Of a DNA stretch of 32,000 nucleotides, positions 9,533 to 26,327 are shown in pieces. This DNA comes from Nostoc punctiforme PCC 73102 (GTDB lineage: Bacteria > Cyanobacteriota > Cyanobacteriia > Cyanobacteriales > Nostocaceae). The stretch lies in NCBI RefSeq assembly GCF_000020025.1, contig NC_010632.1, positions 30,001-62,000 on the forward strand. Direction: 5' to 3'. Each line of letters begins with the position of its first letter. Positions within the stretch are counted from its first letter, which is position 1. The notes under the pieces are model-generated. The model was given only the letters and a program-made list of their open reading frames with translations, was not told where the DNA came from and did no database searches. The position numbers and the translations under genes were made by a program.

Positions 9533-9630
9533 GCCATTGAATTTATCGATTAGCGTTGATGGCAAGACTGAAAGTTTGGGAGATATTTAAAGGGAAAAAT
9601 TACTCTTGATTAATGACTTTGAGGTTAATT

Positions 9631-10419
9631 ATGGCACAGATTATTGCAGTTCATTCATTCCGTGGTGGCACTGGCAAATCCAACTTGATTGCTAATATGG
9701 CTGCTACTATGGCTTTGCAAGGACAACGTGTAGGCATTATTGATACTGATATTCAATCACCAGGAATTCACGTGATTTTTGGGATTAATGAAAACAAAAT
9801 GGAACGCACTCTCAATGATTATTTGTGGGGGTACTGTAATATTAAAGATGCTGCCTATGATGTTACTGAAGCTTTAGCTATAGAGCAGGGAAATACAAGT
9901 ACAGTTAAAGGTAGCCTTCATTTAGTTCCTTGTAGTATTAAAGCTAGTGAAATCGCCAGAGTTCTCCGGGAGGGATATGATGTCGTTCGGCTAAATGATG
10001 GTTTTCAAGAATTCATTCGTAGTCTGAAATTAGATTATCTGTTAATTGATACACATCCTGGTTTAAATGAAGAAACTTTGCTTTCTATTGGAATTTCTAA
10101 TGTTTTAGTAATTCTTTTACGTCCAGATCATCAAGACTTTCAAGGAACTGCCGTGACAGTCGATGTAGCTCGGAAGTTGAAAGTACCAAAAATGTTGTTA
10201 GTTATCAATAAAGTGCTGCCAAGCTTAAATTTTCTTGACTTGCAACAACAAGTAGAAAAAATATATAACGCTCCTGTCGTGGGGATTTTGCCTCTTTCAG
10301 AAGATATGGTACAGCTAGCAAGCAAAGGTCTTTTTTCTCTACGTTATCCTCAACATCCCATCAGTCAAACTATCAAAGGAATTACTAATCAGATTGCTAG
10401 TTTAGTCGTTAGTCATTAG
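9631..10419 (+). CDS. MinD/ParA-superfamily P-loop ATPase with variant deviant Walker A (RGGTGKS)
   Basis: MAQIIAVHSFRGGTGKSNLIANMA...IIDTD...LLIDTHPG. The ATG at 9631 has a GAGG 8 nt upstream, whereas the track start at 9613 lacks an SD and adds an atypical 6-aa extension. Confidence 0.8.
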   Translation: MAQIIAVHSFRGGTGKSNLIANMAATMALQGQRVGIIDTDIQSPGIHVIFGINENKMERTLNDYLWGYCNIKDAAYDVTEALAIEQGNTSTVKGSLHLVPCSIKASEIARVLREGYDVVRLNDGFQEFIRSLKLDYLLIDTHPGLNEETLLSIGISNVLVILLRPDHQDFQGTAVTVDVARKLKVPKMLLVINKVLPSLNFLDLQQQVEKIYNAPVVGILPLSEDMVQLASKGLFSLRYPQHPISQTIKGITNQIASLVVSH

Positions 10420-10439
10420 TTTTTTGCTTTTGTCCCTTT

Positions 10440-11651: not shown

Positions 11652-11774
11652 TTCTATATCTTGCCTATATTGACTATTCTCTTTTAGTTGTGTCCTTTGT
11701 AGTAATTTGTGACAAGTACTTCGGTATCTACGTTTTTAACAATTACCATTAGTAAGACATAGGGAAATTGATTT

Positions 11775-12869
11775 ATGACGGAAGTTTTACTTAAAGAATT
11801 AACTAATAGTGACATTGATTGGATGATTGCTACAGGTCATCAAAGAGAAATAACTGCTGGAAATTTACTTATCCAAGAAGGAAAAACTGCCGATTCTCTA
11901 CATATATTACTGGATGGAATTTTAACAGTTAGCATTTCTCAACCAGACAACAGCCCTTTGACTCGCGCTTTTGCAGCAATCGAAGGTGGTGAAATCTCAG
12001 GTCGGGAAATTGCGAGATTATTCAGTGGCGAAGTAGTGGGAGAACTACCATTGATAGGTAATCGCCCAACTGCTACAACTATTAAAGCTATAGAAAAATC
12101 ATTGGTGATGTCAATTCCTCAACAGAAATTGGCAGCAAAGTTGCAGCAAGACGTTGGTTTTGCTTCACGCTTTTATCGGGCGATCGCCATTATGCTTTCA
12201 GATAGACTACAAAGTATCATCAATCAGCTTGGTCGTAGCAACTTGGCGCAAGGTCAGCCCCTCAGAGATGTGCTATTTATTTTGGGAGAATTACATGATA
12301 GTGACATCGATTGGATGATGGCTTATGGCACTGTGCAAAAAATTCTTGTTAATACTACACTGATTCGTGAAAGAGGGACTGTAGATGCACTATATATTCT
12401 TTTAGATGGCATAATGTCTCTGTCTATTACTGAAGATAAACGTAATCCTTTAGCACGTGCTTTTGCTGCGATCGAGGGTCATGAAATTTCTGGTAGAGAA
12501 ATAGCAAGATTATCCAAAGGCGAAATTGTCGGTGAAACACCCTTTATTGATGGCCGTCTACCTTCTGCAACCGTTAAGACTATTGAAGACTCGATTGTTT
12601 TGTCGGTTCCCCGACAGGAAATGGCAGCAAAGTTACAACAAGATGTCGGATTTGCATCTCGTTTTTATCGTGTGATCGCTACTTTGCTTTCCCAGAGATT
12701 GCAAGGAACGTTGAGTCAACTTGGTTCTGGTAGGCGGGTTTATAGCCAAGGTTTGCCGTTGACTAAAAGTGCGGAATATGAGGATGAGTTGAATGATACC
12801 GTTTTAGATAGTGTGGCGATCGCAGGTAAAAGATTTGATTGGATGTTGGGGCGGTTAAAAGTAAGTTGA
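11775..12869 (+). CDS. Stand-alone tandem cyclic-nucleotide-binding (CAP/CNB) domain protein
   Basis: Two homologous halves each contain DIDWM..., LHILLDG/LYILLDG, GEVVGELPLI/GEIVGETPFI, ...ATTIKAIE/ATVKTIE and KLQQDVGFASRFYR. There is no output domain. Confidence 0.85.
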   Translation: MTEVLLKELTNSDIDWMIATGHQREITAGNLLIQEGKTADSLHILLDGILTVSISQPDNSPLTRAFAAIEGGEISGREIARLFSGEVVGELPLIGNRPTATTIKAIEKSLVMSIPQQKLAAKLQQDVGFASRFYRAIAIMLSDRLQSIINQLGRSNLAQGQPLRDVLFILGELHDSDIDWMMAYGTVQKILVNTTLIRERGTVDALYILLDGIMSLSITEDKRNPLARAFAAIEGHEISGREIARLSKGEIVGETPFIDGRLPSATVKTIEDSIVLSVPRQEMAAKLQQDVGFASRFYRVIATLLSQRLQGTLSQLGSGRRVYSQGLPLTKSAEYEDELNDTVLDSVAIAGKRFDWMLGRLKVS

Positions 12870-12984: not shown

Positions 12985-13182
12985 ATGACAATTAAAGAAC
13001 AAATTACACAAGAACTGGAAAAATTACCTGAACCACTGTTGCAGGAAATTTTAGATTTTGTTCAATTTTTGCAAACCAAACACCAGCAACATAATATACT
13101 AGAAATCACTCTTATGAGTGAATCATCGCTGCAAAAAGATTGGTTAAAACCAGAAGAAGAGGCAGCATGGCAGGATTTATAA
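12985..13182 (+). CDS. Antitoxin, DUF2281-like
   Basis: 65 aa. MTIKEQITQELEKLPEPLLQEILDFVQFLQTKH is the pattern I associate with DUF2281 antitoxins. AGAGGGA sits upstream of the ATG. The 3' end overlaps the toxin ATG by 16 nt. Confidence 0.7.
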   Translation: MTIKEQITQELEKLPEPLLQEILDFVQFLQTKHQQHNILEITLMSESSLQKDWLKPEEEAAWQDL

Positions 13183-13679
13183 AGGGCGATATTGTTATCG
13201 TTCCATTCCCATTCTCTGACTTAACTCAAACAAAACGCAGACCTGCTTTAGTTATTGCTACACTTCAGGGAAATGACCTGATTCTTTGCCAAATTACTAG
13301 TCAATCTGTTGGCGATATATACGCTATTCAACTGGATAACAGTGATTTTTACTCCGGTGGTTTAAATCAGCCAAGCAATATCAGACCAAATCGGCTTTTT
13401 ACTGCTGATCAGCAAATTATTTTATACAAAGCTGGTCAGATTAAACCTGAAAAATTAAGAGAAGTTATTAATAAAATTGTTAGAAATTATGATGATGAAT
13501 TGAAGAATAGCATTTTAGATGCTGTGGCGATCGCTATTCTACTTTCTCATAGACTACAAGGTTTGCTGCTAGCTGAGAGTGCAGAATATGACGATGAGTT
13601 GAATCATAGCGTTTTAGATGGTGGTGCGATCGCAGGGAAAAGATTTGATTGGATGCTGGGGCGGTTAAAAGTAAGTTGA
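13167..13679 (+). CDS. MazF/PemK-family toxin fused in frame to a duplicated C-terminal remnant of the cNMP-binding protein
   Basis: MAGFIKGDIVIVPFPFSDLTQTKRRPALVIA... is the canonical PemK/MazF N-terminus. The fold should end near residue ~107 (..INKIVRN). Residues ~108-170 (YDDELKNSILDAVAIA + ILLSHRLQGLLLAESAEYDDELNHSVLDGGAIAGKRFDWMLGRLKVS) copy the tail of the 11775-12869 product. The track start at 13140 was rejected in favour of the ATG at 13167. Confidence 0.75.
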   Translation: MAGFIKGDIVIVPFPFSDLTQTKRRPALVIATLQGNDLILCQITSQSVGDIYAIQLDNSDFYSGGLNQPSNIRPNRLFTADQQIILYKAGQIKPEKLREVINKIVRNYDDELKNSILDAVAIAILLSHRLQGLLLAESAEYDDELNHSVLDGGAIAGKRFDWMLGRLKVS

Positions 13680-13732: not shown

Positions 13733-14161
13733 CTAGAGTCCTAGCTGATTGACATAAGCTGGTAGTGGCAATAGTTTATTTAATAGCACCTTGTCAGCCG
13801 TCCAGAACTCACCTTGTTCACCCTCAGCACAAGCTAAAAATGCGGCATCATAGAGCGTTGGTAGTTGATATTGTTCTGCAATTTCCCAAGCTCTGACTCT
13901 GAGCAACTGCTCGTTAATGTAATCTATGGGTAGATTACAAAAATCTAGATAACAGCCTTCTGCTTCTTCTATTGTCAGTAAACCCATCCTGACTTTCTTA
14001 CGTAATACTGAGCCTACTTCTGCCCAAGCAAAGCTGGGAATAACTAAACGTGTATGTCCCACAACTGCTTCCAGCACGAGATTATCTGCTAATGGTTCAT
14101 TTTCATCAGGTACAAGATAGGCCATAAGAACGCTTGTATCCAAGCATAGGACTTTATTCAC
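13733..14161 (-). CDS. vapC: PIN-domain toxin (VapC-type)
   Basis: VLCLDTSVLMAYL near the N-terminus, ...YDAAFLACAEG..., ...FWTADKVL. The GTG at 14161 overlaps the antitoxin stop (GTGAATAA) and puts the first Asp ~8 residues from the start. The ORF-track ATG at 14200 would overlap the antitoxin by 47 nt. Confidence 0.75.
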   Translation of the reverse strand: MNKVLCLDTSVLMAYLVPDENEPLADNLVLEAVVGHTRLVIPSFAWAEVGSVLRKKVRMGLLTIEEAEGCYLDFCNLPIDYINEQLLRVRAWEIAEQYQLPTLYDAAFLACAEGEQGEFWTADKVLLNKLLPLPAYVNQLGL

Positions 14162-14414
14162 TTCGCATATCCCCTTCTCTGAGGCTATGAATGAAAACAT
14201 TCACATCTGGGTGTACGCCAGTTCTAGCCTTGATTTTGGCACGTCTGGCTACGATGCTCTGATGAGTAACAATAGCCTGTCGTCGTTTAACCTCTCGTTC
14301 CACTGCTTCAACTACTAGCTCATTGAATGACTCTGAGCCATCTTTAAGATGTTTTGCTTTGCTTAACAGAGAAATAGGAAACCGGATTGTAACTGCTTCA
14401 CGTTCCATGTTCAT
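14154..14414 (-). CDS. vapB: RHH-type antitoxin (VapB-like)
   Basis: 86 aa. VTIRFPISLLSKAKHLKDGSESFNELVVEAVEREVKRR fits a ribbon-helix-helix. It lies immediately upstream of, and overlaps, the PIN gene. Confidence 0.65.
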   Translation of the reverse strand: MNMEREAVTIRFPISLLSKAKHLKDGSESFNELVVEAVEREVKRRQAIVTHQSIVARRAKIKARTGVHPDVNVFIHSLREGDMRSE

Positions 14415-14514
14415 TTATAGCATTCATATTGTGATATCTAATTATATAACCATTTTTTGGTGGAGATAGAAAGTCTAATGACTGTAGCAATTGACTATGA
14501 ACTCTAACGAAAAA

Positions 14515-14770
14515 AATTTAGTTTTACCTAAAAATTGTGCATTGTGTTTAAAAGTTGCTTGATCTGCTTGGCAATTTTATCTAGCGATCGCTATTTTGCT
14601 TTAAAATCTAATTTCACCTAAAAATTGTGCATTGTATTCAAAAGTCGCTTTGGAGCAGAATATTATTTTGGCTTAGTACTGTTCTCGTGCAATCGCTATT
14701 TTGATTCTAAATCTAGTTTTATCTAAAAATTGTGCATTACATCTAAATTTTAAAGGCGCTATTATTTGTT
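14515..14770. repeat. Three degenerate tandem repeat units upstream of the RiPP precursor genes
   Basis: The core (C/T)CTAAAAATTGTGCATT occurs at 14527-14545, 14617-14635 and 14721-14740, each preceded by AAAT(C/T)TA(A/G)TTT. A second box, CGCTATT(T/A)TTTG, starts at 14589, 14694 and 14757. Confidence 0.65.
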
Positions 14771-14793
14771 GTAACAAACAGCACAAATATAAT
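14766..14793 (+). promoter_or_regulatory. Candidate sigma70-type promoter for the precursor genes
   Basis: TTGTTG (14766-14771), a 16-nt spacer, then a perfect TATAAT (14788-14793), ~73 nt upstream of the ATG at 14866. The background is AT-rich, so a chance match is plausible. Confidence 0.25.
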
Positions 14794-14865
14794 GTTTATT
14801 GGTTGTTATCAACATTCAATGAACATAAAAACTTACTTTGTCTTTAAATTCAGTTAGGAGAAATT

Positions 14866-15054
14866 ATGTCTACCCCAAACGAAAATCAAAACCCTAAACA
14901 GGCAAGTGACTATATCGAAATTAATGAAGATGGAGAACTAGTAGTTAAAGATCCTAAATTAGCAGAGTCACTTCAAGAGCTAACTCCTGAAGAACTTGAG
15001 CAGATTGCTGGTGGAGATAATGGCAATTGTAACTGTAATGTAAAACAAAGATAA
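14866..15054 (+). CDS. RiPP precursor peptide 1: 50-aa double-glycine leader + 12-aa core DNGNCNCNVKQR
   Basis: RBS TAGGAGAAATT precedes the ATG. The leader ends LQELTPEELEQIAGG, a classic GG cleavage motif for C39-ABC exporters. A paralogue follows 213 nt downstream. Confidence 0.8.
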   Translation: MSTPNENQNPKQASDYIEINEDGELVVKDPKLAESLQELTPEELEQIAGGDNGNCNCNVKQR

Positions 15055-15096
15055 TAAGTGTGACGTTTATTGCTTACAGGTAATCCCTTAATTAAG

Positions 15097-15172
15097 CAAA
15101 CAGAATTAATTACATATTTATTCTTTGCTGGACAACAATTTCAACCTAGTTTTGTTGAATTAATTCTGTTTG
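15097..15172 (+). promoter_or_regulatory. Perfect 15-bp inverted repeat (stem-loop) between the two precursor genes
   Basis: CAAACAGAATTAATT (15097-15111) pairs with AATTAATTCTGTTTG (15158-15172) across a 46-nt loop. No U-tract follows. Confidence 0.5.
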
Positions 15173-15266
15173 GCGACTTGTACGCCACTTTCGTAAATCC
15201 TCTGAGCATCGAAATATCCATCTTTTGTGCTTATAAACCTCGTTTTTGAATCACTTAGGAGAAATC

Positions 15267-15500
15267 ATGTCTAATCCAAACGAAAATCAAAGCCCTAAAC
15301 AGGTAAGTGACTATATCGGAATTAATGAAAATGGGGAGTTAGTGGTTACAGATCCTAAATTAGCAGAGTCACTTCAAGAATTAAGTACTGAAGAACTTGA
15401 GCAGATTGCTGGTGGTGTCCTACCCACTAATGGTACTTGTACTAATAATGGATGTGGCAAAGCTGTACTAGAATCAGATGAATCAGCTTCTCTTCCGTAA
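15267..15500 (+). CDS. RiPP precursor peptide 2: 50-aa double-glycine leader + 27-aa core VLPTNGTCTNNGCGKAVLESDESASLP
   Basis: It has the same RBS (TAGGAGAAATC then ATG at 15267). The leader is identical to precursor 1 at 42 of 50 positions. The ORF-track TTG start at 15246 was rejected. Confidence 0.8.
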   Translation: MSNPNENQSPKQVSDYIGINENGELVVTDPKLAESLQELSTEELEQIAGGVLPTNGTCTNNGCGKAVLESDESASLP

Positions 15501-15577
15501 AAATTGCTAAACTAATACCAATTTTTCGCCAAATTCTAGTGTGTGTTAAGGACGATAAAGATTTAGTATTTCAGACT

Positions 15578-15640
15578 ATGATTAGCTCCACAGAATTAAG
15601 CGTTGATGAAGAAAAGTTGGTAGAGTTGTCTGTTAGATGA
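15578..15640 (+). other. 20-codon ORF resembling a decayed third leader (MISSTELSVDEEKLVELSVR)
   Basis: CACAGAATTAAGCGTTGATGAAGAAAAGTTG... resembles the CAAGAATTAAGTACTGAAGAACTTGAG... segment of precursor 2. Its TGA (15638-15640) is part of the terminator stem. Confidence 0.3.
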
Positions 15641-15690
15641 TCGCTACACTTGGTTAAATATCAAGTAAGATTGTGGCGATCACTTTTTTT
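15638..15690 (+). terminator. Rho-independent terminator/attenuator between the precursor genes and the radical SAM gene
   Basis: An 11-bp stem pairs TGATCGCTACA (15638-15648) with TGTGGCGATCA (15672-15682), including one G-U pair. The loop is 23 nt, followed by C plus T7 (15684-15690). Confidence 0.6.
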
Positions 15691-15755
15691 CAAATCATCT
15701 GGATTTTCTTCACGACAAATCAAGGAATATTTTTTGAAATTGAGAGTTTTTTATT

Positions 15756-16817
15756 ATGACTGTAACAATTTTGCACGAAGCTAATTCTATTGATACTGAT
15801 TATGTCAAGCGTGCGCGATTAATATCTGATAAGTTTCTTGAATTAATTATCTTACCAACAGAACAGTGCAATTTTCGCTGTACCTATTGTTATGAAGATT
15901 TTTCAATAGGGCGGATGCAGCCGGAGACGATAGCAGGGATTAAAGCTATCCTTGATAAACGATGCCCAAATTTAAGTTATTTAAATTTAGCCTGGTTTGG
16001 TGGAGAGCCACTTGTTGCCAAAAATATTGTATTAGATATTTCTGAATATGCTTTGTCTCTAGTATCCAAGTATCCCCATCTCCATTATTCAAGTAATATG
16101 ACCACAAATGGTTACTTATTGGATCTGAATACAGCTTCTGCCTTAGCCAATGTGGGAGTTACAAAATACCAAATTTCTCTTGATGGCCCTCGAGAAATCC
16201 ACAACCAAAGTCGTATTCGTGCTGATGGAAAAAGTACATTTGAACGAATTTGGACTAATTTACTAGCAATTCGTGATAGTTCATTACCAATTTATATAAA
16301 TCTGCGTCTGCACTTCACCATAGATACAGTAAAGCTTATCGACCCACTACTAGAGGATATCAAAAGAGAATTTTTGCCTGATTCAAGGTTTTCTGTTTAC
16401 TTCAAATCTATTGAACGTCTTGGTGGTACTAATGATGCTTCAATCAAAATTTATTCAGAGAGTGAAAAAAATACAGCTATCAAAACTCTTGAAGCAAAGT
16501 TATTTGGTGAGAAATTGCAATCACCACAGAATGCTACCTTGCCAGACGACTATGTTTGTTATGCATCACGTCCCAACTCTTTAGTAATTCGTGCCAACGG
16601 TTCTGTTGGTAAATGTACAGTAGCCCTTTCTGATGAACGCAACAATATTGGCACTTTACGGACAGATGGTCGGCTTGATCTCATACCAGGTCGTTTTGCT
16701 CCTTGGGTTCGTGGAATTCAAACCCTCGATCCTGATGTATTAGGTTGTCCTCTCGTTTCTTTGCCAACAAGTGATGAAATAGCGACTAATTTACAAACAA
16801 AAGCACTTGCTGTATAG
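15756..16817 (+). CDS. Radical SAM peptide-modifying enzyme with a short SPASM/twitch-like C-terminal domain
   Basis: CNFRCTYC (CxxxCxxC) at residues ~38-45, GGEPL, and the C-terminal Cys-containing segment VCYASRPNSLVIRANGSVGKCTVAL...LGCPL. There is no room for an N-terminal RRE domain. Confidence 0.9.
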   Translation: MTVTILHEANSIDTDYVKRARLISDKFLELIILPTEQCNFRCTYCYEDFSIGRMQPETIAGIKAILDKRCPNLSYLNLAWFGGEPLVAKNIVLDISEYALSLVSKYPHLHYSSNMTTNGYLLDLNTASALANVGVTKYQISLDGPREIHNQSRIRADGKSTFERIWTNLLAIRDSSLPIYINLRLHFTIDTVKLIDPLLEDIKREFLPDSRFSVYFKSIERLGGTNDASIKIYSESEKNTAIKTLEAKLFGEKLQSPQNATLPDDYVCYASRPNSLVIRANGSVGKCTVALSDERNNIGTLRTDGRLDLIPGRFAPWVRGIQTLDPDVLGCPLVSLPTSDEIATNLQTKALAV

Positions 16818-16956
16818 CGAAAAATAGCATTTATAGTCAGAATTTATGCAACTGGCATATCTATCTTCTGTTAAAGAATCAATAGTCAAGGTTTTGTGGA
16901 ATCTTGACTTTTGACAATCTTAACTGAGGCGGCATAAATATATTGTTAAACAGAAA

Positions 16957-18402
16957 ATGTTAAACCAGAAGCGCAGTATATTTCGTAAAGAATCTCTGGA
17001 ACGTCTATCTTCTCCTGAACGATTAGACCAACTCATGCAGGTAGTTAGCCCCAGAAGCTGGCTACCTCTTGTCGCCTTGGGTTCTATTGTCGGAGTAGCT
17101 GTTATCTGGAGCATTTATGGACGCATCCCCATCACCGTTGAGGGTAAAGGAGTACTGATTTACCCCAGCAATGTTGTGCCTCTGCAATCAAAAAGCGCTG
17201 GACAGTTAATGGCTCTCAATATCAAAGTTGGGGATGTCATCAAAAAAGGGCAAGTACTCGCAACAATTGACCAAGCGGAACTCCGTAAGCAATTGCAACA
17301 GCAACAAGCGAAACTCACGCAACTAGAGTCACAAGACGAAGCCGTTGGTTCACTGCAAGGGCAAAGACTACAACAAGAAAAGCGATCGCAATCCCAACAA
17401 AGTCACTACCTCCAACAACGTATACTAGAACTGCGAACCATCACACCTCTGCTCAAAACCAAAGGCAACACCTCAATTGGCCAGCAACGTCAAGGTTTAC
17501 AGCAACGTCTTTTGCAAGCCCAAGCCTTGAACCCCATTTTCCTCCAAAGAATGGAAATTCGCAGACAATTCAAAAAAGAAGGCGCGATTTCTGGTGATGA
17601 AGCACTCACGGCTGAACAAGAATATTTGCAAAACCTGGAAAAAATCTCTGACATTCAAAATCAGTTGAAAGAACTGGATGTAAAAACGACTCAAACAGAA
17701 AAAGATTATCGTGAAAACTTGAGTACGATTTCTGATCTGCAAGCTCAGTTGAAAGAATTAGATAGCAAACAGGCTTCTGTGGCTCAACAAGACTTAGAAA
17801 GCGTTACTACCCGAAAAAAAGAGATTCAAGAAGTTAAGCGCGAAATTGCCCAATTAGAAGTGCAATTAGGTGACAACAGTCAAATCATTAGTCAATATAG
17901 TGGACGCATTTTAGAAATCACGCAGACACCAGGGCAGGTTGTTGAAGCTGGTACACGCTTGGCAACTATCGAGGCGGAGAACCCCAAAAGTAAGTTAATT
18001 GGTGTTACCTATTTCCCTGTAGCAGAAGGTAAGAAAATTAAAGCAGGGATGACAATCCAAATTACCCCCCAAACTGTCAAGCGGGAGCGATTTGGCGGTA
18101 TTGTTGCCAATGTTACTAGTATCTCGCGCTTTCCGATTACAAAAGAAGCAGCTGCATCGGAGGTAGGTAATGCAGAGGTGGTGGAAGGTCTAGTATCTCA
18201 ACAAAAAGATGGTTTGATACAAGTATTTTCTGACTTAGAGATAAATTCCAGCACCCCAAGCGGCTATAAATGGTCTTCTTCTACAGGGCCAAGGCTGACT
18301 GTTTCTTCTGGAACTACCACTGTTGCACGAGTCAAGGTAGAAGAACGCGCTCCCATCACTTTTGTTTTACCTATCTTGAGGTCTGTTAGTGGTATCTACT
18401 AA
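16957..18402 (+). CDS. HlyD-family membrane fusion protein of an NHLM-type bacteriocin exporter
   Basis: N-terminus FRKESLERLSSPERLDQLMQVVSP plus one TM, a long Q-rich coiled coil, and a C-terminal beta-rich domain. Confidence 0.85.
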   Translation: MLNQKRSIFRKESLERLSSPERLDQLMQVVSPRSWLPLVALGSIVGVAVIWSIYGRIPITVEGKGVLIYPSNVVPLQSKSAGQLMALNIKVGDVIKKGQVLATIDQAELRKQLQQQQAKLTQLESQDEAVGSLQGQRLQQEKRSQSQQSHYLQQRILELRTITPLLKTKGNTSIGQQRQGLQQRLLQAQALNPIFLQRMEIRRQFKKEGAISGDEALTAEQEYLQNLEKISDIQNQLKELDVKTTQTEKDYRENLSTISDLQAQLKELDSKQASVAQQDLESVTTRKKEIQEVKREIAQLEVQLGDNSQIISQYSGRILEITQTPGQVVEAGTRLATIEAENPKSKLIGVTYFPVAEGKKIKAGMTIQITPQTVKRERFGGIVANVTSISRFPITKEAAASEVGNAEVVEGLVSQQKDGLIQVFSDLEINSSTPSGYKWSSSTGPRLTVSSGTTTVARVKVEERAPITFVLPILRSVSGIY

Positions 18403-20632
18403 ATCTACTTTAGTAACACTGTTTAATCCTTGGCAGTATTTACAAAAATTACTGCCGAGCAGAAGCATACGGGTAAAAACGCCCACTCTTCTACAAATGG
18501 AAGCAGTGGAATGTGGGGCTGCTGCTTTGGGAATTATTCTCGGTTACTATGGCCGAACTGTACCTTTACCACAACTGCGTCAGGAATGCGGAGTTTCCCG
18601 CGATGGCAGCAAAGCATCTAACATGGTGAAGGTTGCGAGAAGCTATGGACTCGAAGCTAAAGGCTTTAAAAAAGAACTCAAGCAATTGTGGGAACTGCGA
18701 CCACCTTACATTATCTTTTGGAACTTCAACCACTTTGTTGTCGTAGAGGGGTGGAATAAACAGCGAGTTTATCTCAATGACCCCGGTACAGGCCCGCGCC
18801 ATGTATCTTTACAGGAATTCGACGAGGGGTATACCGGAGTGGTGCTGGTAATGGAACCAGGCGCGGAGTTTGTCAAAGGTGGTCGTAAACCCAGCATGAT
18901 TTTATCGCTGGCGAAAAGGTTACAAGGTGCTGGGGATGCCTTAATTTACTGCATAGTCGCGGGATTTTTCTTAACTGTAGTTGGGCTGGTAATACCAGTG
19001 TTTAGCCAAGTGTTTGTAGATGACATCTTGGTGGAGGGACGGCAATTATGGTTGCGTCCTTTGCTTGTGGGTATGGCGATCGCTGCTATACTCCAAGGAT
19101 CGCTAACTTTACTACGGTTACGCTACCTGCGCCGCTTGAAAATCAAATTAGCTGTGGGTATGTCCAGCCGTTTCCTGTGGCATATCCTCCGCTTACCTGT
19201 GAGCTTTTACGCTCAACGATTTAGCGGAGAAATCAGTAATCGTACTACTCTCAATGACCAAGTAGCTGATGTTCTGGCGGGACGATTAGCAACTACAATC
19301 ATCGATACATTTATGGTGTTTTTTTACGCCCTAGTCATGGTGCAATATGACTGGGTGCTGACCTTAATTGTAGTTAGCTTTGCTGCCGTGAATGTCTTAA
19401 CTTTGCAACTAATTTCTCGTCAACGTGTAGACGCGAATCAACGATTGATTCAAGAATATGGTAAAGCTGCTGGTGTATCTATTGCCGCGCTTCAAAGTAT
19501 AGAAACACTCAAAGCATCAGGGTTAGAGTCAGATTTCTTTTCCCGGTGGTCAGGTTATTACACTAAGGCTCTTAATTCCCAGCAGGAACTGGGGGTGACA
19601 AACCAGACATTCTCAGTATTACCCACGCTTTTATCCGCCCTTTCTTCAATGTTGTTGTTGGTTGTCGGTGGATTACGGGTTATGGATGGACATCTTAGCA
19701 TCGGAATGCTTATAGCCTTTCAAGGTTTGATGCTTAACTTTCAGCAGCCTGTTAACAATCTGGTCAACTTTGGTACAACTCTTCAAGAACTGGAAGGTAA
19801 TTTAATTCGCCTTGATGATGTGCTGGATAATCCCATTGGGGAGGGAGCAGGTGGAGATGGGGGAGTAACATCCTCCTCATCCCCCTCATCTGCTTATCTT
19901 GTTCCCAAATTGCAGGGATATGTTGAGTTGCAGAATATTACGTTTGGCTATAGCCGCCTGGAACCGCCACTGATTGAAAACTTTAACCTCTCAATTAAGC
20001 CGGGACAGCGAGTAGCTTTGGTAGGTGGAAGCGGTTCTGGGAAATCTACCGTTGCCAAACTTGTAAGCGGACTTTATCAACCTTGGGCGGGAGAAGTTTA
20101 CTTTGATGGTAAACCTAGAGAGCAAATTCCCCAACAACTGCTTACAAATTCTGTTGCAATGGTGGAGCAGGAAATTTTGTTGTTTGGCGGTACGGTTAGA
20201 GATAATTTGACTCTGTGGGATACTACTGTACCAGATAAAAGCCTGATGCGGGCATGTGTTGATGCAGCGATCGCTGATGTAATCCTCTCTATGTCCGGTG
20301 GGTTTGATGCCGAACTTATAGAAGGTGCTGCAAATTTAAGTGGCGGTCAGCGACAACGCTTAGAAATCGCTCGTGCTTTAGTGAATAATCCTTCAATCCT
20401 GATCATGGATGAAGCCACCAGTGCCCTATATGCAGAGACAGAACAAATCATTGACCGGAATCTGCGCCGCCGAGGATGCACCTGTATAATTGTCGCTCAT
20501 CGATTAAGCACCATCCGCGACTGCGATCAAATCATTGTCCTCGAACGTGGAAAGGTAGTACAACTTGGCACTCACAAAGAATTGTGGCAAGTCGATGGTG
20601 CATATTCGCGCTTGCTAGGCACCCAAGGGTAG
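18389..20632 (+). CDS. ABC exporter with N-terminal C39 peptidase domain (peptidase/permease/ATPase)
   Basis: The C39 Cys is in LLQMEAVECGAAALGIILGYYG and the His in FNHFVVVEGW. The TMD is followed by an NBD with GGSGSGKST, LSGGQRQR, ILIMDEATS and AHRLST. The GTG start overlaps the HlyD stop by 14 nt. The first in-frame ATG lies inside the C39 domain and so cannot be the start. Confidence 0.9.
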   Translation: MVSTKSTLVTLFNPWQYLQKLLPSRSIRVKTPTLLQMEAVECGAAALGIILGYYGRTVPLPQLRQECGVSRDGSKASNMVKVARSYGLEAKGFKKELKQLWELRPPYIIFWNFNHFVVVEGWNKQRVYLNDPGTGPRHVSLQEFDEGYTGVVLVMEPGAEFVKGGRKPSMILSLAKRLQGAGDALIYCIVAGFFLTVVGLVIPVFSQVFVDDILVEGRQLWLRPLLVGMAIAAILQGSLTLLRLRYLRRLKIKLAVGMSSRFLWHILRLPVSFYAQRFSGEISNRTTLNDQVADVLAGRLATTIIDTFMVFFYALVMVQYDWVLTLIVVSFAAVNVLTLQLISRQRVDANQRLIQEYGKAAGVSIAALQSIETLKASGLESDFFSRWSGYYTKALNSQQELGVTNQTFSVLPTLLSALSSMLLLVVGGLRVMDGHLSIGMLIAFQGLMLNFQQPVNNLVNFGTTLQELEGNLIRLDDVLDNPIGEGAGGDGGVTSSSSPSSAYLVPKLQGYVELQNITFGYSRLEPPLIENFNLSIKPGQRVALVGGSGSGKSTVAKLVSGLYQPWAGEVYFDGKPREQIPQQLLTNSVAMVEQEILLFGGTVRDNLTLWDTTVPDKSLMRACVDAAIADVILSMSGGFDAELIEGAANLSGGQRQRLEIARALVNNPSILIMDEATSALYAETEQIIDRNLRRRGCTCIIVAHRLSTIRDCDQIIVLERGKVVQLGTHKELWQVDGAYSRLLGTQG

Positions 20633-20689
20633 AGACGGTGAGCAGTAAATTACCATAAAACATTTAAAAATCTAAACCTAAAATCTAAA

Positions 20690-23581
20690 ATGCTAATACA
20701 GGGGCAAGTTTATATAGTTAATGGCAATGAACCGATTCTACTGGATGACCCTTCACGGGTGTGGATAATTCAGTCTGGCTCTATGGCTTTGTTTGCCATT
20801 ATAGTTAAAGATGGCTCTATTGAAGGGACACGCCGTTATCTGTGCAGTATTAGCCAAGGTGAAGCACTTTTCGGGACTGCTGATAAATTTGCTAATCAGT
20901 ATCGTCAGATTTTGGCAGTTCCAATTGGTGAGACTGAATTACTGCAAATACATAAGGAATGTTACTGCGAGTTAATAGCCAGTGAGGATGCTAAGGCGAT
21001 CGCCTGGATAGAAAATTGGTTATTACAAATTGGTGGTGTATTGTCCCAGATTACCATACCAGCAATTCATGTAAAAGCTGAGGGACAATCACGATTTTCC
21101 TTAAACAATGGTCAGACTTTTCAGCCAGAAGCAGGTGTCACCTGTTGGGTTCAACTTACTCAAGGCACTGTCCGCTTTCTGGGATTCGAGGAATTAATTT
21201 TAACCGCATCCACTACACCATTCCCTTTGACTGACAAAATGTGGCTAGAAGCAGTGGAAGGGGTGCAACTTACTACTAAGACTACTAGCGAATTCCAAAA
21301 TTCAGATATCCTTCTAGCTGGGTTATCTCAACTGCATACTCAATTGCTACAATGCCTTAACCTGTTAGATGAACGAGAACTACAGGCAGAGATGATACGG
21401 TTGCGCGATCGCCAACGCCTGAATCGTCAAGTTACAGCGCAAGCTATAGGCTCTTTAGCATCAACATTAAGTTCCCAAGATGGAGACTTTTTCAATGAAG
21501 GTACTCCTTTGTTGGTTGCTGCTGGAGCCGTAGGGAGAGCTATGGGTGTAGAGGTTCGCCCCCCGTCTCGTTCTGAAAACCTCAAGCGAGTTAAGGAGCC
21601 ATTAGAAGCAATTGTCCGGGCTTCACGTATCCGAATGCGGCGGGTACTATTGCGAGATAATTGGTGGGAGAAAGATTCTGGCCCCCTAGTTGCCTATACT
21701 CAGCAAGATAATCGACCAGTAGCACTGCTACCAATTAGTGCAACTCGTTATGAAATTTTTGACCCAGTTGAGCATACCCGTTTTCGAGTGGATGAGCATA
21801 TAGCTGCAACACTGGCTCCTGTTGCCTATATGTTTTATCGCTCTCTACCTGATAAAGTACTGCAAGCTGTTGATATATTGCGGTTCACACTTAAAGGACG
21901 TAGCCCAGAACTGCTAGTAATTTTGTTTACAGGTATCGCCGTCACATTACTAGGGATGCTTACACCTTATGCCACATCAATTATCATAGATAACGCAATT
22001 CCTGATAGCGACAAGGGATTATTGCTACAAATAGGATTGGGACTACTTGTTGCAGCTTTGGGAACAGGTGTATTTCAGCTAACTCAGGGATTTGCTCTGC
22101 TGCGAATTGAAACGGCTGGGGATGCTTCCACTCAGGCTGGTGTCTGGGATCGGCTGCTCTGTTTACCAGTATCCTTTTTCCGACAGTACACAACCGGAGA
22201 CATCTTCTCCCGCGTCTCATCTGTGAGTACGATCAGCCGACGAATCAGTGGGAGAACCCTAATTAATCTCCTTACCAGCCTGTTCGCACTGTTTTACTTA
22301 GGACAGTTATTTTATTACAACTATAAATTAGCTCTAATTGCAGTTGCATTTGCCATCGTTGCGATCGCAGTGACTACAGTCTCTGGTTTGCTATTGCTAT
22401 CTAAGGTACGTCCACTTTTGGAACTGCGAGGCAGTATTTTTGGGCAGACGGTGCAACTAATTAATGGCATTTCCAAATTGCATATTGCTGGGGCAGAAGA
22501 ACGTGCATTTGCAGCTTGGAGTAAAAACTATACTCGACAAATTAAGCTAGAGCTTAGTACACAAAGGGTTGAAGATGCTGTTGCGCTTTTTAATACAGTA
22601 ATGCCCATATTAACGAATGGTGTGCTTTTCTGGTTTACTATTAAGCTGCTAGAAAGCCCTCAAACTTCAGGAGTTATTGAAATATCTCTTGGAACTTTCC
22701 TCGCTTTCAATACAGCTTTTAGTAACTTTACTAAGGGAACCACAGATTTGAGCAATACAGTTACTGAAATTCTGCAAGTTCTTCCCCAATGGCAACGCAC
22801 CCAGCCTATTCTTTCGACTATACCAGAAGTGGATCTGTGCAAAGCTGATCCAGGCAAGCTGATTGGTAATATTTCTTTAGAACATATTACTTTCCGCTAC
22901 CGTAGTGATGGCCCTCTGACGCTGGATGATGTGAGTATTTCTGCTGCTCCAGGAGAGTTTATTGCCTTAATAGGTGGTTCTGGCAGTGGTAAATCGACGA
23001 TTCTACGATTGCTACTGGGATTTGAAACTCCAATTGCAGGTAGCATCTACTATGATGGTCAAGACTTATCTGGCTTAGATATAGATGCAGTCCGCCGGCA
23101 GTTGGGCGTTGTTTTACAAAATGGTCAGCTGAGTTCAGCTTCTATTTTCGAGAATATTGCAGGCGGCGCTCAGATTACTTTAGATGAAGCTTGGGAGGCG
23201 GCGCGGATGTCGGGATTCGCTGAGGATATCACCGCCATGCCAATGCAAATGCATACTGTCGTGAGTGAAGGAGGCGGTAATCTTTCTGGAGGACAACGAC
23301 AACGGTTGTTAATTGCTCGCGCTCTGGCATTAAAACCCCGGATCTTGCTATTTGATGAGGCTACCAGTGCGCTCGATAACAGAACCCAGGCGATTGTTAG
23401 TGAAAGTTTAGATAACTTACAAGTTACCAGAATTGCGATCGCTCACCGACTAAGCACTATCCGCAACGCTCACCGCATTTATGTACTCCAGGCAGGTCGA
23501 GTTGTACAACAAGGGACTTTTCAAGAGTTAGCTGCTGTTGAGGGGCTATTTGCCCAGTTAATGTCTAGGCAAATGGCGTAG
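20690..23581 (+). CDS. Second ABC exporter subunit with N-terminal cNMP-binding-like and Cys-less C39-like domains
   Basis: 963 aa. The N-terminal segment VWIIQSGSMALFAI...GEALFG is CNB-barrel-like. Residues ~270-400 resemble a C39-like domain, but no Cys is seen where the catalytic Cys would be expected (GTPLLVAAGAVGRAMG). The TMD is followed by an NBD with GGSGSGKST, LSGGQRQR, LLFDEATSALD and AHRLST. Confidence 0.9.
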   Translation: MLIQGQVYIVNGNEPILLDDPSRVWIIQSGSMALFAIIVKDGSIEGTRRYLCSISQGEALFGTADKFANQYRQILAVPIGETELLQIHKECYCELIASEDAKAIAWIENWLLQIGGVLSQITIPAIHVKAEGQSRFSLNNGQTFQPEAGVTCWVQLTQGTVRFLGFEELILTASTTPFPLTDKMWLEAVEGVQLTTKTTSEFQNSDILLAGLSQLHTQLLQCLNLLDERELQAEMIRLRDRQRLNRQVTAQAIGSLASTLSSQDGDFFNEGTPLLVAAGAVGRAMGVEVRPPSRSENLKRVKEPLEAIVRASRIRMRRVLLRDNWWEKDSGPLVAYTQQDNRPVALLPISATRYEIFDPVEHTRFRVDEHIAATLAPVAYMFYRSLPDKVLQAVDILRFTLKGRSPELLVILFTGIAVTLLGMLTPYATSIIIDNAIPDSDKGLLLQIGLGLLVAALGTGVFQLTQGFALLRIETAGDASTQAGVWDRLLCLPVSFFRQYTTGDIFSRVSSVSTISRRISGRTLINLLTSLFALFYLGQLFYYNYKLALIAVAFAIVAIAVTTVSGLLLLSKVRPLLELRGSIFGQTVQLINGISKLHIAGAEERAFAAWSKNYTRQIKLELSTQRVEDAVALFNTVMPILTNGVLFWFTIKLLESPQTSGVIEISLGTFLAFNTAFSNFTKGTTDLSNTVTEILQVLPQWQRTQPILSTIPEVDLCKADPGKLIGNISLEHITFRYRSDGPLTLDDVSISAAPGEFIALIGGSGSGKSTILRLLLGFETPIAGSIYYDGQDLSGLDIDAVRRQLGVVLQNGQLSSASIFENIAGGAQITLDEAWEAARMSGFAEDITAMPMQMHTVVSEGGGNLSGGQRQRLLIARALALKPRILLFDEATSALDNRTQAIVSESLDNLQVTRIAIAHRLSTIRNAHRIYVLQAGRVVQQGTFQELAAVEGLFAQLMSRQMA

Positions 23582-23688: not shown

Positions 23689-24249
23689 TTATAAATGCCG
23701 CCAGAAGTTCTTACTGATAGTCTTAAGACTGACAACTGCCGTTTCTACTGTTGCTTCAGGGGCATGACTAACAGCAACCGCAACAGCAATTGGTGCAGGT
23801 GTCGCTAACAGAGAATTGAGTAATCCCATTTGATAATCAACATCTTCTACTGAGCGATATACCCTGTATAGTTCAATTTGCATACCCAAAGGTGTTGGGA
23901 CAATCTTCAGATATTGATTTAGGGCATTGATATAAGCAACTGAGAAATTTCTCTGCTCTACACAAGGACGAATAATCTCTAGTAATTCAATCGCTCTGTT
24001 GATTTCAGAAACTTCACAATTACTATCGATTTGTGACTGACTTCTTCTGTAGCCTTTCATCGTCTTTTCGGCTACCAGATTGTTGAATTTGCTAACGGCT
24101 CTTTGATGATTGCCTAATGGATGGACTTTGGTTTGAGCTTTATAACCGACTCTGCCCCACTGCACTGTTAAGTTACTATCTTCGACAATGGCCGCCCAGA
24201 ACTTATTGCTGTTCTGGATAGCATCAACAAAGACTAAATAGATTTCCAT
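23689..24249 (-). CDS. WGR-domain protein
   Basis: The N-terminus IYLVFVDAIQNSNKFWAAIVEDSNLTVQWGRVGYKAQTKVHPLGNHQRAVSKFNNLVAEKTMKGY is a clear WGR signature. The C-terminal ~100 aa are unassigned. Confidence 0.75.
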   Translation of the reverse strand: MEIYLVFVDAIQNSNKFWAAIVEDSNLTVQWGRVGYKAQTKVHPLGNHQRAVSKFNNLVAEKTMKGYRRSQSQIDSNCEVSEINRAIELLEIIRPCVEQRNFSVAYINALNQYLKIVPTPLGMQIELYRVYRSVEDVDYQMGLLNSLLATPAPIAVAVAVSHAPEATVETAVVSLKTISKNFWRHL

Positions 24250-24262
24250 GTTTCTTACCCTA

Positions 24263-24610
24263 TCAACTCACGACTTGACGGGCATTGCCCCATCGAATTT
24301 GATGCTGTAAAGCTTCAAGTAAGGTTTCAGCTTCCAGAGTTGTTAACCCATTTAGAACAGAGCAGACATCATGCAAATCCTCGGGAATAGAATCAGGAAT
24401 TACTAGCTCACATAAAGCATCTTCAAGGGCTGTAGAAACTGGATATTCAGTTGGGGTGTACTCCTGTTGCATAACAATGTATGTAGACAGAGTTACTCGT
24501 AATAACAGTTTTGTCTCTCTGTCTAACTTCTCTAAGTGTGCGCCGTAATTATCAACCAGTTGGTTAATCAAGTCTGTTTGTCCGTAGTATGTAACTAAAT
24601 CTGTCGTCAT
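24263..24610 (-). CDS. Hypothetical protein (115 aa)
   Basis: ATG ORF ending 13 nt upstream of the WGR gene. No family recognised. Confidence 0.5.
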   Translation of the reverse strand: MTTDLVTYYGQTDLINQLVDNYGAHLEKLDRETKLLLRVTLSTYIVMQQEYTPTEYPVSTALEDALCELVIPDSIPEDLHDVCSVLNGLTTLEAETLLEALQHQIRWGNARQVVS

Positions 24611-24654
24611 TTTCTTCGGTCTATATAATTGTTAAGAAACTGCTATCAATTACT

Positions 24655-24698
24655 AAAAAAAAGAGTGATTGCCCCCATAGAATCAGGAGGCAATTGCT
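24655..24698 (-). terminator. Possible partial intrinsic terminator after the AAA+ gene (minus strand)
   Basis: On the minus strand an imperfect hairpin (AGCAATTGCC...GGGGCAATCACT, 24664-24698) is followed by U8 (24655-24662). Confidence 0.4.
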
Positions 24699-24704
24699 TT
24701 CTCA

Positions 24705-26327
24705 TCAGTTCATATTCCGAAACTTAGCAGCACGCAAAGATTGAGTTTTCGCTGCAACCGCAGGACTACTAGCCCGTCGTGCAGTGGATGCCCAACTCTG
24801 CATCCGTTCCACCGCCGCAGCATCCTGAATCGCAAGCGGGGTAATGGTTTGACGACAGGTTTCGAGGTCAGCAAGTGTTACCTGCTGCGGTCTATCCTCA
24901 TCGAATGCCAGCAGAGCAGCTTCAGATGCTAGCGTTTCCAATTCAGCACCGGAAAATTTCGCGGTGGAAGCTGCGATCGCTTCAAGATATTCGGATTCCA
25001 GGTGAATGCCAAAACGTTGTAGATGAATCCCCAGAATCTGTACACGCTCAGGTTCTGTGGGCAAGTCAACAAAGAAATTTTCATCGAAGCGGCCTTTCCG
25101 TTTTAGCTCACTTGGCAGTGCAGAGGGGTCATTGCAAGTTGCCACGACAAACACACCACACTGTGATTCCGACATAAACGTGAGAATATTGCCCAGAATC
25201 CTCTGTGAGACTCCACTCGTGTCACCAGTTCCCGAAAGTGCTTTTTCTATTTCATCAATCCACAGGACGCAGGGTGCGATCGCTTCGGCAGTCTTTAAAG
25301 CCCGTCTGACATTCCCCTCAGACTCACCGACCAGACTGCCCAACAGGGATGCAATGTCTAGCTGTAGGAGAGGTAAATTCAGTATAGTTGCAATGTTTTT
25401 GGCACAGTTAGATTTTCCTGTTCCGGGTGGGCCAGCCAGCAATACACCCTTTGGTTGGGGTAAGCTAAGACTTCGCGCCTCGACAGTAAACAACCGTCGC
25501 CGACGAGTCAGCCATTCGCGCAATAAGTCAAGTCCGCCAAATGGTATGCTAGCTGGTTTACCCAACTCGATACCCATTTGAGACAGTAGCCGAGTTTTGT
25601 ACTCGACAGCTTTGGGAATGAAATCAGCATCAACGACGACACCATCATTAGTTAAGTTTTCTTTGACTGTTAAGCGAAGGAAATCACTAATTTCTTCTAA
25701 AGTTAAACCCAACGCTGCACGAGAAAGAGTTTCAAATTCAGCATTTTCTAGCGTAACAGTGAAAGTCAATTCTTGCTCTCTAGCAGACTGTTGTAGGTCA
25801 TGCAAATAGGAAGTGATATGCTCAAGTATTTGGTCAATACTAGGTAAAGGGACTTCACAATAAGGAATCAATCTGACTAGGGATTCGTGTAATTGTATGT
25901 TCTGACCCAACAAGACAATGCGTTTATCTGTGGGTTTTAACCGATGGTAAAGGTTTTTTACCTTGCTTAAAATCTCCCAACTCAATTGGGATGAGTTCTT
26001 AGTAATAAAAGGGTGAATGTCTCCAAGAATGAAAACTCCATGACCACTAAAATTAGCAATGTAGTCGAATACAAATAGTAGTGGATCGGACTGTAGAGGT
26101 CTTTTATACTCTGCAACTGGTTTAAACACCAGTCCACCATCTGCCGCAATCAGGCATTGCTCTAAGGTTGATACTCCCAGATTCCAGAAGAACACTGGAC
26201 ATGAGAGCTTGCTCGATGCCTCTGTAGTTAACCACTGAATGATAGTTGCTTCATCGGGGGACAGGACATCAACTGCGGCGATCGGGATTTGTGAATCGAG
26301 CGTGGAGAGGAGATTTGAGAGTTTCAT
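24705..26327 (-). CDS. Classic-clade AAA+ ATPase with a unique ~270-aa N-terminal domain
   Basis: Walker A GVLLAGPPGTGKS, Walker B CVLWIDEIEKA, and a second region of homology VVATCNDPSALPSELKRKGRFD. Confidence 0.9.
   Translation of the reverse strand: MKLSNLLSTLDSQIPIAAVDVLSPDEATIIQWLTTEASSKLSCPVFFWNLGVSTLEQCLIAADGGLVFKPVAEYKRPLQSDPLLFVFDYIANFSGHGVFILGDIHPFITKNSSQLSWEILSKVKNLYHRLKPTDKRIVLLGQNIQLHESLVRLIPYCEVPLPSIDQILEHITSYLHDLQQSAREQELTFTVTLENAEFETLSRAALGLTLEEISDFLRLTVKENLTNDGVVVDADFIPKAVEYKTRLLSQMGIELGKPASIPFGGLDLLREWLTRRRRLFTVEARSLSLPQPKGVLLAGPPGTGKSNCAKNIATILNLPLLQLDIASLLGSLVGESEGNVRRALKTAEAIAPCVLWIDEIEKALSGTGDTSGVSQRILGNILTFMSESQCGVFVVATCNDPSALPSELKRKGRFDENFFVDLPTEPERVQILGIHLQRFGIHLESEYLEAIAASTAKFSGAELETLASEAALLAFDEDRPQQVTLADLETCRQTITPLAIQDAAAVERMQSWASTARRASSPAVAAKTQSLRAAKFRNMN

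Follow-up and report, generated by a model that had tools for sequence, protein, structure and literature searches.

What does an organism make with two small precursor peptides, a single radical S-adenosylmethionine (rSAM) enzyme and a three-part exporter? This question is raised by a stretch of 32,000 nucleotides from Nostoc punctiforme PCC 73102 (contig NC_010632.1, positions 30,001 to 62,000; hereafter the window), which carries at 14866-23581 a cluster for a peptide made on the ribosome and modified after translation (RiPP) composed of two precursor genes (preA and preB), a hairpin, one rSAM gene and an exporter trio. A preliminary description had recognized these parts and considered that the product class could not be assigned from sequence. 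We recovered all of the parts (Table 1): two paralogous small open reading frames (ORFs) with a common ribosome-binding site and 50-residue leaders ending in ELEQIAGG, the hairpin between the precursors and the enzyme, the lone rSAM gene encoding the motif CNFRCTYC, and an NHLM-type exporter whose three subunits all exceed the cut-offs of their curated hidden Markov models (HMMs). The locus is very probably an rSAM-dependent RiPP operon. The statement on the product class did not survive, since the class is narrowed by an NxxC, or more generally N-x(0-4)-C, signature in the core peptides, which points to Cys-Asn thioether rings.

Precursors, leader motif and core signature

A block of 172 nt is common to preA and preB (14843-15014 and 15244-15415, 88% identical) and spans the AGGAG ribosome-binding site and the leader, which is exactly 50 residues long in both. 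The ATG start of preB is also the start annotated by NCBI. The leaders had been described as novel, and they indeed gave no match to the models for nitrile hydratase leader peptides (NHLP, TIGR03793) or Nif11 leaders (TIGR03798), with weak GG-leader matches only. But they are not orphans, as a conserved motif travels with the rSAM family in many phyla. This motif, [ILV]x[ILV][DN]xxGx[ILV]x[ILV]xxPxLA, is common to small ORFs directly upstream of the rSAM gene in most loci, for instance as DIQLDEQGRIVINAPELA in Streptomyces and as YIEINEDGELVVKDPKLA in the window. When all stop-to-stop segments on both strands of 79 loci and the window were searched with an HMM of the motif, small same-strand ORFs beside the rSAM gene were found in 61 of the 79 loci, about 20 of which were outside the training set of the HMM. 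Almost all matches shared the strand of the rSAM gene and lay no more than about 1 kb from it. The presence of precursor-like peptides next to family members across phyla bears out the assignment of the enzyme as a peptide maturase. For six diverse precursors taken from other phyla, no family model was matched in Pfam or NCBIfam.

In close homologues of preB, the leaders are 66-84% identical and the cores are unrelated, yet N...C is retained (MNFGCITI, GNPGCSNGSCPSRQ and LNGACSNDNCKGPE are examples). In NCBI, the two precursors, like their homologues in Nostoc, bear the name 'type A2 lanthipeptide', an identity that we rejected: the window contains no LanM or LanC domain, and the preA core, DNGNCNCNVKQR, is devoid of Ser and Thr. 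The name, which is corrected here, seems to be erroneous and to stem from a GG-leader match to PF04604, which scores 23 bits and covers only residues 31-54 of the precursor, i.e. the GG-leader end. A 59-aa ORF with a TTG start between the precursors (15070-15249) overlaps an inverted repeat and was treated as spurious. Of note, the stretch that follows preB at about 15560-15650 (MISSTELSVDEEKLVELSVR and a stop codon) faintly resembles a leader end, through a 19-nt match of 79% only; it could be a decayed third precursor.

The cores are hypervariable but rich in Gly, Asn and Cys, with a recurring C-terminal N-x-[VA]-x-x-C-G unit (i to i+5 spacing). We analyzed 216 Cys in 80 cores, with composition-preserving shuffles as a control. 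Asn was found at positions -1 to -4 for 73% of the core Cys, versus 41.5 ± 3.1% in the shuffles (maximum 50%), and it was the most frequent residue at -3 (38%), where it was also enriched over the shuffles. The first Cys had an Asn before it in 75 of the 80 cores, and the numbers of Asn and Cys per core were correlated (Spearman 0.68). In the window, all four Cys have Asn at -3 (N2-G-N-C5 and N4-C-N-C7 in preA; N5-G-T-C8 and N10-N-G-C13 in preB). Asp is found in place of Asn now and then, as in DVIC, DLYC and DMMC. Single-Cys cores also exist (MNFGCITI, AWLNGACVGYQA and ITVNGICFSWSFN), and the conservation of their lone Cys argues against a purely disulfide role of the core Cys.

The radical SAM enzyme and the exporter

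The rSAM protein is 100% identical to ACC85198 / WP_012413210. A full-library HMMER search at E ≤ 1e-30 yielded a family of 1013 clusters at 50% identity, the top 150 of which are nearly all 320-360 aa long and aligned over residues ~20-338. In a species-level genome scan, relatives with 42-92% identity were found in cyanobacteria, Streptomyces, Kitasatospora, Nonomuraea, alpha-, beta- and gamma-proteobacteria, Chloroflexi, Planctomycetes and others; a near-identical enzyme is present in Nostoc sphaeroides, and ones with 87-92% identity in other Nostocales.

Exactly six Cys are invariant in 63 members of the family across phyla, all other alignment columns containing at most 30% Cys. Beyond the three Cys of CX3CX2C, they comprise C268-X13-G-X4-C287 and C331; with the CX2CX5CX3C block missing, this corresponds to the first half of the SPASM motif. 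The full seven-Cys motif (CX9-15GX4C ... CX2CX5CX3C ... C), which would serve two auxiliary clusters, is thus not conserved in the 63 members. Judging from this pattern, the auxiliary site is predicted to be a twitch-like single site with three protein ligands. An N-terminal RiPP recognition element (RRE) is also missing: CX3CX2C is preceded by only 37 residues in the window enzyme, and by a minimum of 25 in the family, the alignments of RiPP-maturase HMMs begin at profile positions 73-85, and the AlphaFold2 (AF2) model has a single helix ahead of the barrel. Domain scans of the window revealed no PqqD-like gene.

The best HMM matches of the enzyme are maturases of Cys-rich peptides, ranthipeptides and sactipeptides (TIGR04463, Clo7bot, geopeptide, PapB, CefB, CcpM, SCIFF and RumMC). 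The nearest structures are CteB (E 9e-14; also the best sequence match in the PDB), then anSME, ChlB and SkfB; ChlB (9gm3), a match by both fold and sequence that is mentioned in an article about a triceptide RiPP, was not treated as functionally related. We considered the possibility that the enzyme is a sulfatase maturase and rejected it: the score with the anSME model TIGR03942 is 49.7 bits for a cut-off of 349, the window contains no sulfatase, and the conserved neighbours of the family are small peptides. A PoyD-type epimerase was excluded as well. Such enzymes have the rSAM cluster only, one further conserved Cys and a C-terminal RRE (PMC8326336), whereas the present family has three further invariant Cys (CX13GX4C...C) and only about 65 residues after C287.

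The rSAM enzyme had been put forward as the sole candidate maturase. This is supported by the finding that no LanM, cyclodehydratase or prenyltransferase domain is present in the scanned ORFs of at least 110 aa between 7549 and 26327, but a DUF7005 protein with an invariant HExxH-like motif, encoded upstream, slightly weakens this view.

The exporter trio and cyc_nuc_ocin, a protein encoded upstream of the precursors, are bona fide members of NHLM systems. The C39 peptidase domain is present in the first ABC subunit (ABC1) and not in the second (ABC2). The N-terminal extension of ABC2 (270 aa, 20690-21500) showed no NCBIfam match when its first 277 residues were searched and no Pfam domain in a scan of the full-length protein.

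Proposed chemistry and its alternatives

The best explanation of the locus as a whole is a leader-dependent RiPP operon with rSAM-catalyzed Cys-Asn thioether chemistry, GG cleavage and export, to which we give a somewhat better than even prospect. For the specific proposal that the product of the rSAM enzyme is a Cys-Asn thioether, which is made by analogy, we see about an even chance. This linkage is favoured because, in the family, substrates with an NxxC-type signature are found together with an auxiliary site of three Cys. NxxcB joins Cys to the beta-carbon of an Asn located three residues upstream, it tolerates Asp as the acceptor, and activation of the Cys on an auxiliary cluster has been proposed for it (PMC9389541, PMC8326336). 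Furthermore, SkfB holds its twitch cluster with three Cys ligands, leaving a site open, and in CteB a substrate Cys binds at the open Aux I site (PMC8326336).

According to this proposal, preA and preB would be translated from strong AGGAG sites, and the stem-loop and U-tract distal to preB would probably attenuate read-through, so that precursor mRNA would exceed enzyme and exporter mRNA. The RRE-less enzyme, which travels with peptides bearing the leader motif as far as co-occurrence is concerned, would bind the thiolate of the core Cys through the free iron of its three-Cys auxiliary cluster (C268, C287, C331). SAM would then be cleaved and a hydrogen abstracted from an Asn situated 1-5 (typically 3) residues upstream of the Cys. 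The Cys-Asn thioether would form with a loss of 2 Da per ring, presumably giving up to two small rings per core, and its attachment at C-beta, as with NxxcB, would be most likely, C-alpha being possible. Finally, the C39 domain of ABC1 would cut after Gly50, and the HlyD-type adaptor, ABC1 and ABC2 would, in keeping with their family membership, export a 12-mer and a 27-mer.

Several observations weigh against this scheme. The HMM scores of the enzyme widely miss all equivalog cut-offs (144 bits versus 525 for TIGR04463, the best; 87 versus 340 for PapB; 56 versus 425 for SCIFF), which makes the transfer of function weak. The AF2 model is of moderate quality (pLDDT 74) and poor around the cluster ligands and the C-terminus. 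Unlike all characterized thioether synthases, the enzyme has neither an RRE nor a second auxiliary cluster. As to the substrates, the Asn-Cys spacing is variable (-1, -3, -4 and -5 each occur often), in a few cores there is Asp or no Asn close by, and the Gly/Asn/Cys-rich composition inflates motif counts, an effect for which the shuffle control accounts. The hairpin between preB and the rSAM gene is conserved only in the closest relatives, and the exporter need not be dedicated to preA and preB, given the many NHLP/Nif11 substrates elsewhere in N. punctiforme, of which at least 16 have been reported (PMC2887384).

Comparison with known systems reveals both likenesses and differences. The NxxcA/NxxcB systems of the streptococcal RaS-RiPPs (Caruso et al. 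2019, via PMC9389541 and PMC8326336) share with the window the NxxC core with Asn three residues before Cys and a single rSAM enzyme as the only maturase; the proposed mechanism, with Cys on an auxiliary Fe-S cluster, hydrogen abstraction from Asn and tolerance of Asp as the acceptor, is that which we suggest here. In contrast, NxxcB is listed with a full SPASM domain and two auxiliary clusters (PMC11851443), whereas the window enzyme has one three-Cys site; it also has no RRE, a feature general for such maturases as a group (PMC8326336). The leader of NxxcA is unrelated, and the streptococcal systems are under shp/rgg quorum-sensing control, whereas in the window the exporter is of the NHLM type and the cassette cyanobacterial. 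The enzyme is likened to NxxcB by description and core motif, not by enzyme sequence.

The maturases CteB, PapB, SkfB and AlbA (TIGR03974, NF047865) resemble the window enzyme in their CX3CX2C core and Cys-rich substrates, the PapB, CcpM, CefB and SCIFF HMMs matching the rSAM core, and SkfB does so also in the three Cys ligands of its auxiliary site. However, they are about 430-460 aa long, compared with 353 aa, and the window enzyme has no RRE and no CX2CX5CX3C block and scores under the equivalog cut-offs. With the NHLP/Nif11 bacteriocin systems (Haft, Basu and Mitchell 2010, PMC2887384), the locus shares the exporter trio, cyc_nuc_ocin, the GG leader end and paralogous precursors with hypervariable cores, but its leaders are of neither type and its maturase is a twitch-type rSAM enzyme rather than a LanM or a cyclodehydratase. 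EpeE/YydG is likewise a short, RRE-less rSAM enzyme with a single auxiliary cluster, and it is the core peptide that directs its activity (PMC8326336); yet its fold similarity is weak (TM ~0.42) and its substrates have no conserved Cys/Asn signature.

Other explanations were considered. It is rather unlikely, in our opinion, that the locus is the cyanobacterial founding example of a new and very large RiPP class, in which a minimal RRE-less rSAM enzyme reads the hairpin-type leader motif directly, or reads mainly the N-x(n)-C of the core. Either way of reading would explain how enzymes with 60-70% identity work with hairpin-type, NHLP and Nif11 leaders, and the enzyme of this class might install a linkage that has not been described, such as Asn-Cys rings of differing size that are made iteratively and overlap, or a connection that is neither beta nor alpha. 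We regard as unlikely that the enzyme catalyzes a different reaction on Cys or Asn (oxidation of Cys, as by anSME, to a formylglycine or dehydro species, heterocyclization of a thio-oxazole type, or cross-linking of Cys to a residue other than Asn), the Asn having a structural or recognition role. If this were the case, one would understand that anSME is the second-best structural neighbour and a weak HMM match, that the Asn-Cys spacing is variable, and that a single three-Cys auxiliary site without an RRE fits no characterized thioether synthase. Yet, the numbers of Asn and Cys co-vary, Asn is enriched upstream of Cys beyond what composition predicts, Asp sometimes replaces Asn, as in known Cys-Asp/Cys-Asn ranthipeptides (PMC9389541), and membership of the anSME family fails on the score given above.

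Single-Cys cores, which are unable to form intramolecular disulfides and nevertheless keep N-x-x-C, speak against the idea that the enzyme is a peptide epimerase of the EpeE/YydG kind and that the core Cys form disulfides after export. EpeE does appear among the fold matches (rank 27, E 1.6e-7) and is similar in size and domain make-up; moreover, cyanobacterial proteusin-type NHLP precursors are known epimerase substrates (PMC8326336) and sister loci use NHLP leaders. However, CteB, anSME and SkfB rank well above EpeE, and the PoyD-type architecture (PMC8326336) is unlike that of the family, which makes an epimerase very unlikely. The last alternative is that the cluster is partly decayed or non-dedicated, its precursors being poorly or not expressed and its exporter serving mainly NHLP/Nif11 peptides encoded elsewhere. 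Two toxin-antitoxin modules and a relic of cyc_nuc_ocin do lie between the cassette and the precursors, a promoter motif found upstream of the Cache/HAMP gene in another locus, L080, is missing at this position in the window, and the NHLP/Nif11 substrates of N. punctiforme mentioned above (PMC2887384) would provide the exporter with other cargo. All ORFs are intact, however, the leaders of the paralogues are conserved (88% at the DNA level) and preceded by strong ribosome-binding sites, three exact copies of the promoter motif are found directly upstream of preA, and the enzyme has its near-identical counterpart in Nostoc sphaeroides and 87-92%-identical ones in other Nostocales. Decay or lack of dedication thus appears highly improbable to us.

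Leader exchange, regulatory DNA and the upstream cassette

Cyanobacterial sister enzymes, 60-70% identical to that of the window, adjoin true NHLP (TIGR03793, 111.7 bits) or Nif11 (TIGR03798, 39.2 bits) precursors. In these sister loci, an N-x-x-C / D-x-x-x-C pattern, with N-G-x-C among its forms, is kept in at least one core per locus (AWLNGACVGYQA, WGPTVNIGNCGAAH, AVNVWKCGKTALS, ITVNGICFSWSFN and VNIICFHFRFR); at one of them (L008), a few NHLP-type cores are without any Cys. In a rough neighbour-joining tree, the hairpin-type leader is found in the outgroups and in one Gloeobacterales locus, and the use of NHLP and Nif11 leaders is nested within the cyanobacterial rSAM clade, where it apparently arose more than once. 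This leader swapping suggests that recognition of the core matters, or that leader binding can readily evolve anew. A conserved protein of about 370 aa, with no Pfam or NCBIfam match, accompanies the rSAM enzymes of sister loci with NHLP leaders (L003 at 2514-3626, L004, L006, L008, L016 and L017) and is missing from the window; it may be a leader adaptor.

A full-text search, which included accessions and sequence strings and covered subscription journals incompletely, found no published description of the rSAM/precursor family, and no curated Pfam or NCBIfam model was found for the rSAM family or for the precursors. The family may already figure, as uncharacterized, in large atlases of rSAM RiPPs. 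The presumed kind of product, an rSAM thioether-type RiPP, is known; what sets the locus apart is a new leader, together with a minimal RRE-less twitch maturase and an NHLM exporter. If the Cys-Asn thioether reading is true, small peptides stapled between Asn and Cys are made by a two-gene module formed by a precursor and an rSAM enzyme of 330-360 aa, represented by about 1000 clusters at 50% identity in cyanobacteria, actinobacteria, proteobacteria, Chloroflexi and Planctomycetes. Genome mining centred on the RRE misses such a module by design; a compendium of RRE-associated rSAM enzymes explicitly leaves room for RRE-less ones (PMC10288494, section 12). The enzyme would then represent a minimal scaffold for leader recognition by an rSAM maturase without an RRE, a test of one auxiliary cluster sufficing for thioether chemistry, and a compact tool for peptide stapling.

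Table 1. Features of the RiPP locus, with positions in the window
Feature	Position	Strand	Evidence and remarks
AraC-type HTH regulator	7549-7968	+	PF12833 HTH_18, E 3e-21; PAS-AraC gene in the same position in L080/L081
Cache/HAMP sensor-like protein	8120-9532	+	dCache_1 and HAMP; beside rSAM in 6 cyanobacterial loci (5 upstream); also in L080
ParA/MinD-like P-loop ATPase	9613-10419	+	PF10609, PF13614; upstream of rSAM in 8 loci; also in L080
DUF7005 protein	10440-11651	+	PF22541, 586 bits; found in 7 loci; also in L080
cyc_nuc_ocin, bacteriocin-type transport-associated cyclic nucleotide monophosphate (cNMP)-binding protein	11775-12869	+	TIGR03896, 421 bits vs 161; upstream of rSAM in 13 cyanobacterial loci
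Inserted toxin-antitoxin module (small ORF and MazF/PemK-like toxin)	12985-13679	+	PF02452; outside the pathway
Inserted PIN toxin and small upstream ORF (presumed antitoxin; VapBC-like)	13733-14414	-	PF01850; ORFs overlap at 14154-14200; outside the pathway
Three direct repeats, each with the exact 16-mer CTAAAAATTGTGCATT (14528, 14618, 14723)	14513-14755	+	Candidate promoter/operator of the precursor operon
preA (62 aa)	14866-15054	+	50-aa leader and core DNGNCNCNVKQR with two overlapping NxxC; leader HMM E 2.6e-9
Perfect 15-nt inverted repeat with 46-nt loop, between preA and preB	15097-15172	+	-19.7 kcal/mol, z = -2.6
preB (77 aa)	15267-15500	+	50-aa leader and core VLPTNGTCTNNGCGKAVLESDESASLP with two NxxC; leader HMM E 2.3e-8
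Terminator-like stem-loop and U7, between precursors and rSAM gene	15638-15690	+	Stem-loop 15638-15683, -21.2 kcal/mol, z = -3.8
rSAM maturase (353 aa)	15756-16817	+	PF04055, E 1e-16; CX3CX2C (C38, C42, C45); C268, C287, C331
HlyD-type adaptor	16957-18402	+	TIGR03794, 532 bits vs 156
C39 peptidase/permease/ATPase (ABC1)	18389-20632	+	TIGR03796, 1191 bits vs 853; PF03412, E 5e-36; ECG...NHFVVV...NDP motifs
Second permease/ATPase (ABC2)	20690-23581	+	TIGR03797, 1056 bits vs 709, residues 271-962

The three copies of CTAAAAATTGTGCATT upstream of preA sit in 48-nt direct repeats spaced by 90 and 105 nt. The motif is found in 13 other cyanobacterial loci and in L080 (L001, L003, L004, L009-L014 and L016 are among those that carry it). 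In almost every case it lies on the operon strand, mostly a short way upstream of precursor or cassette genes; in L080, it precedes both the Cache/HAMP operon and a Nif11 precursor. A shared promoter or operator is a plausible role for this motif, and the adjacent AraC protein is, by inference, a candidate to bind it. As for the stem-loop upstream of the rSAM gene, none of 200 shuffles folded as well; a simple terminator scan missed it because its loop is long. A homologous hairpin is present in L001, the closest orthologue, and L010 has a different strong hairpin with a T-run, those of the other loci checked being weak or absent. An Rfam scan of 14000-17200 gave no match, nor did a megablast search of 14400-17000 against a plasmid collection.

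The preliminary description had delineated a compact cluster at 14866-23581. Its reading as a RiPP system with GG-leader precursors, an rSAM maturase and an NHLM exporter is supported, but the unit reaches upstream to 7549: the cassette at 7549-12869 belongs to it on the strength of observed co-occurrence, the roles of its genes being presumptive. Homologues of the Cache/HAMP, ParA-like, DUF7005 and cyc_nuc_ocin genes are found beside the rSAM gene in 6-13 cyanobacterial loci, nearly always upstream. The five-gene order (AraC, Cache/HAMP, ParA-like, DUF7005, cyc_nuc_ocin) also occurs at 6776-12305 of L080, in an Anabaena/Nostoc genome, where the cassette is followed by a different RiPP cluster, comprising a Nif11 precursor, a 420-aa rSAM enzyme, two NHLP precursors, a LanM and a B12-rSAM enzyme. 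Because of this, the cassette would represent a generic module with regulatory and transport-associated functions in cyanobacterial NHLM systems rather than class-specific tailoring functions and, apart from cyc_nuc_ocin, it seems to be an undescribed one. In the DUF7005 protein, H254, E255, H258, E275 and D279 are invariant in 40 sequences, the first three forming part of the motif E253-H254-E255-x-x-H258. A Foldseek search of the PDB with its confident AF2 model (pLDDT 80.7) returned no match; a metallohydrolase of a novel kind, associated with the NHLP/Nif11 RiPP systems of cyanobacteria, is one possibility for this protein.

The MazF-like ORF closes with ~65 codons (13480-13679) that derive from the 3' end of cyc_nuc_ocin as a relic copy, terminate in KRFDWMLGRLKVS and a stop codon and match the C-termini of cNMP-binding proteins in other loci, which shows that the junction between cassette and precursors was once contiguous. 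Partial duplicates of the cyc_nuc_ocin end are also found upstream of the precursors in L011 and L012. These sequences point to repeated duplication of a unit made of gene end, promoter and precursor, with a probable later insertion of the toxin-antitoxin modules. A 'small ORF' that is conserved upstream of precursors elsewhere proved not to be a new gene, as it corresponds to the C-terminus of cyc_nuc_ocin or to its partial duplicates. At the downstream boundary, the minus strand of 23689-26327 encodes a WGR-domain protein, a 115-aa ORF without domain match and an AAA+ ATPase, which are unrelated to the cluster.

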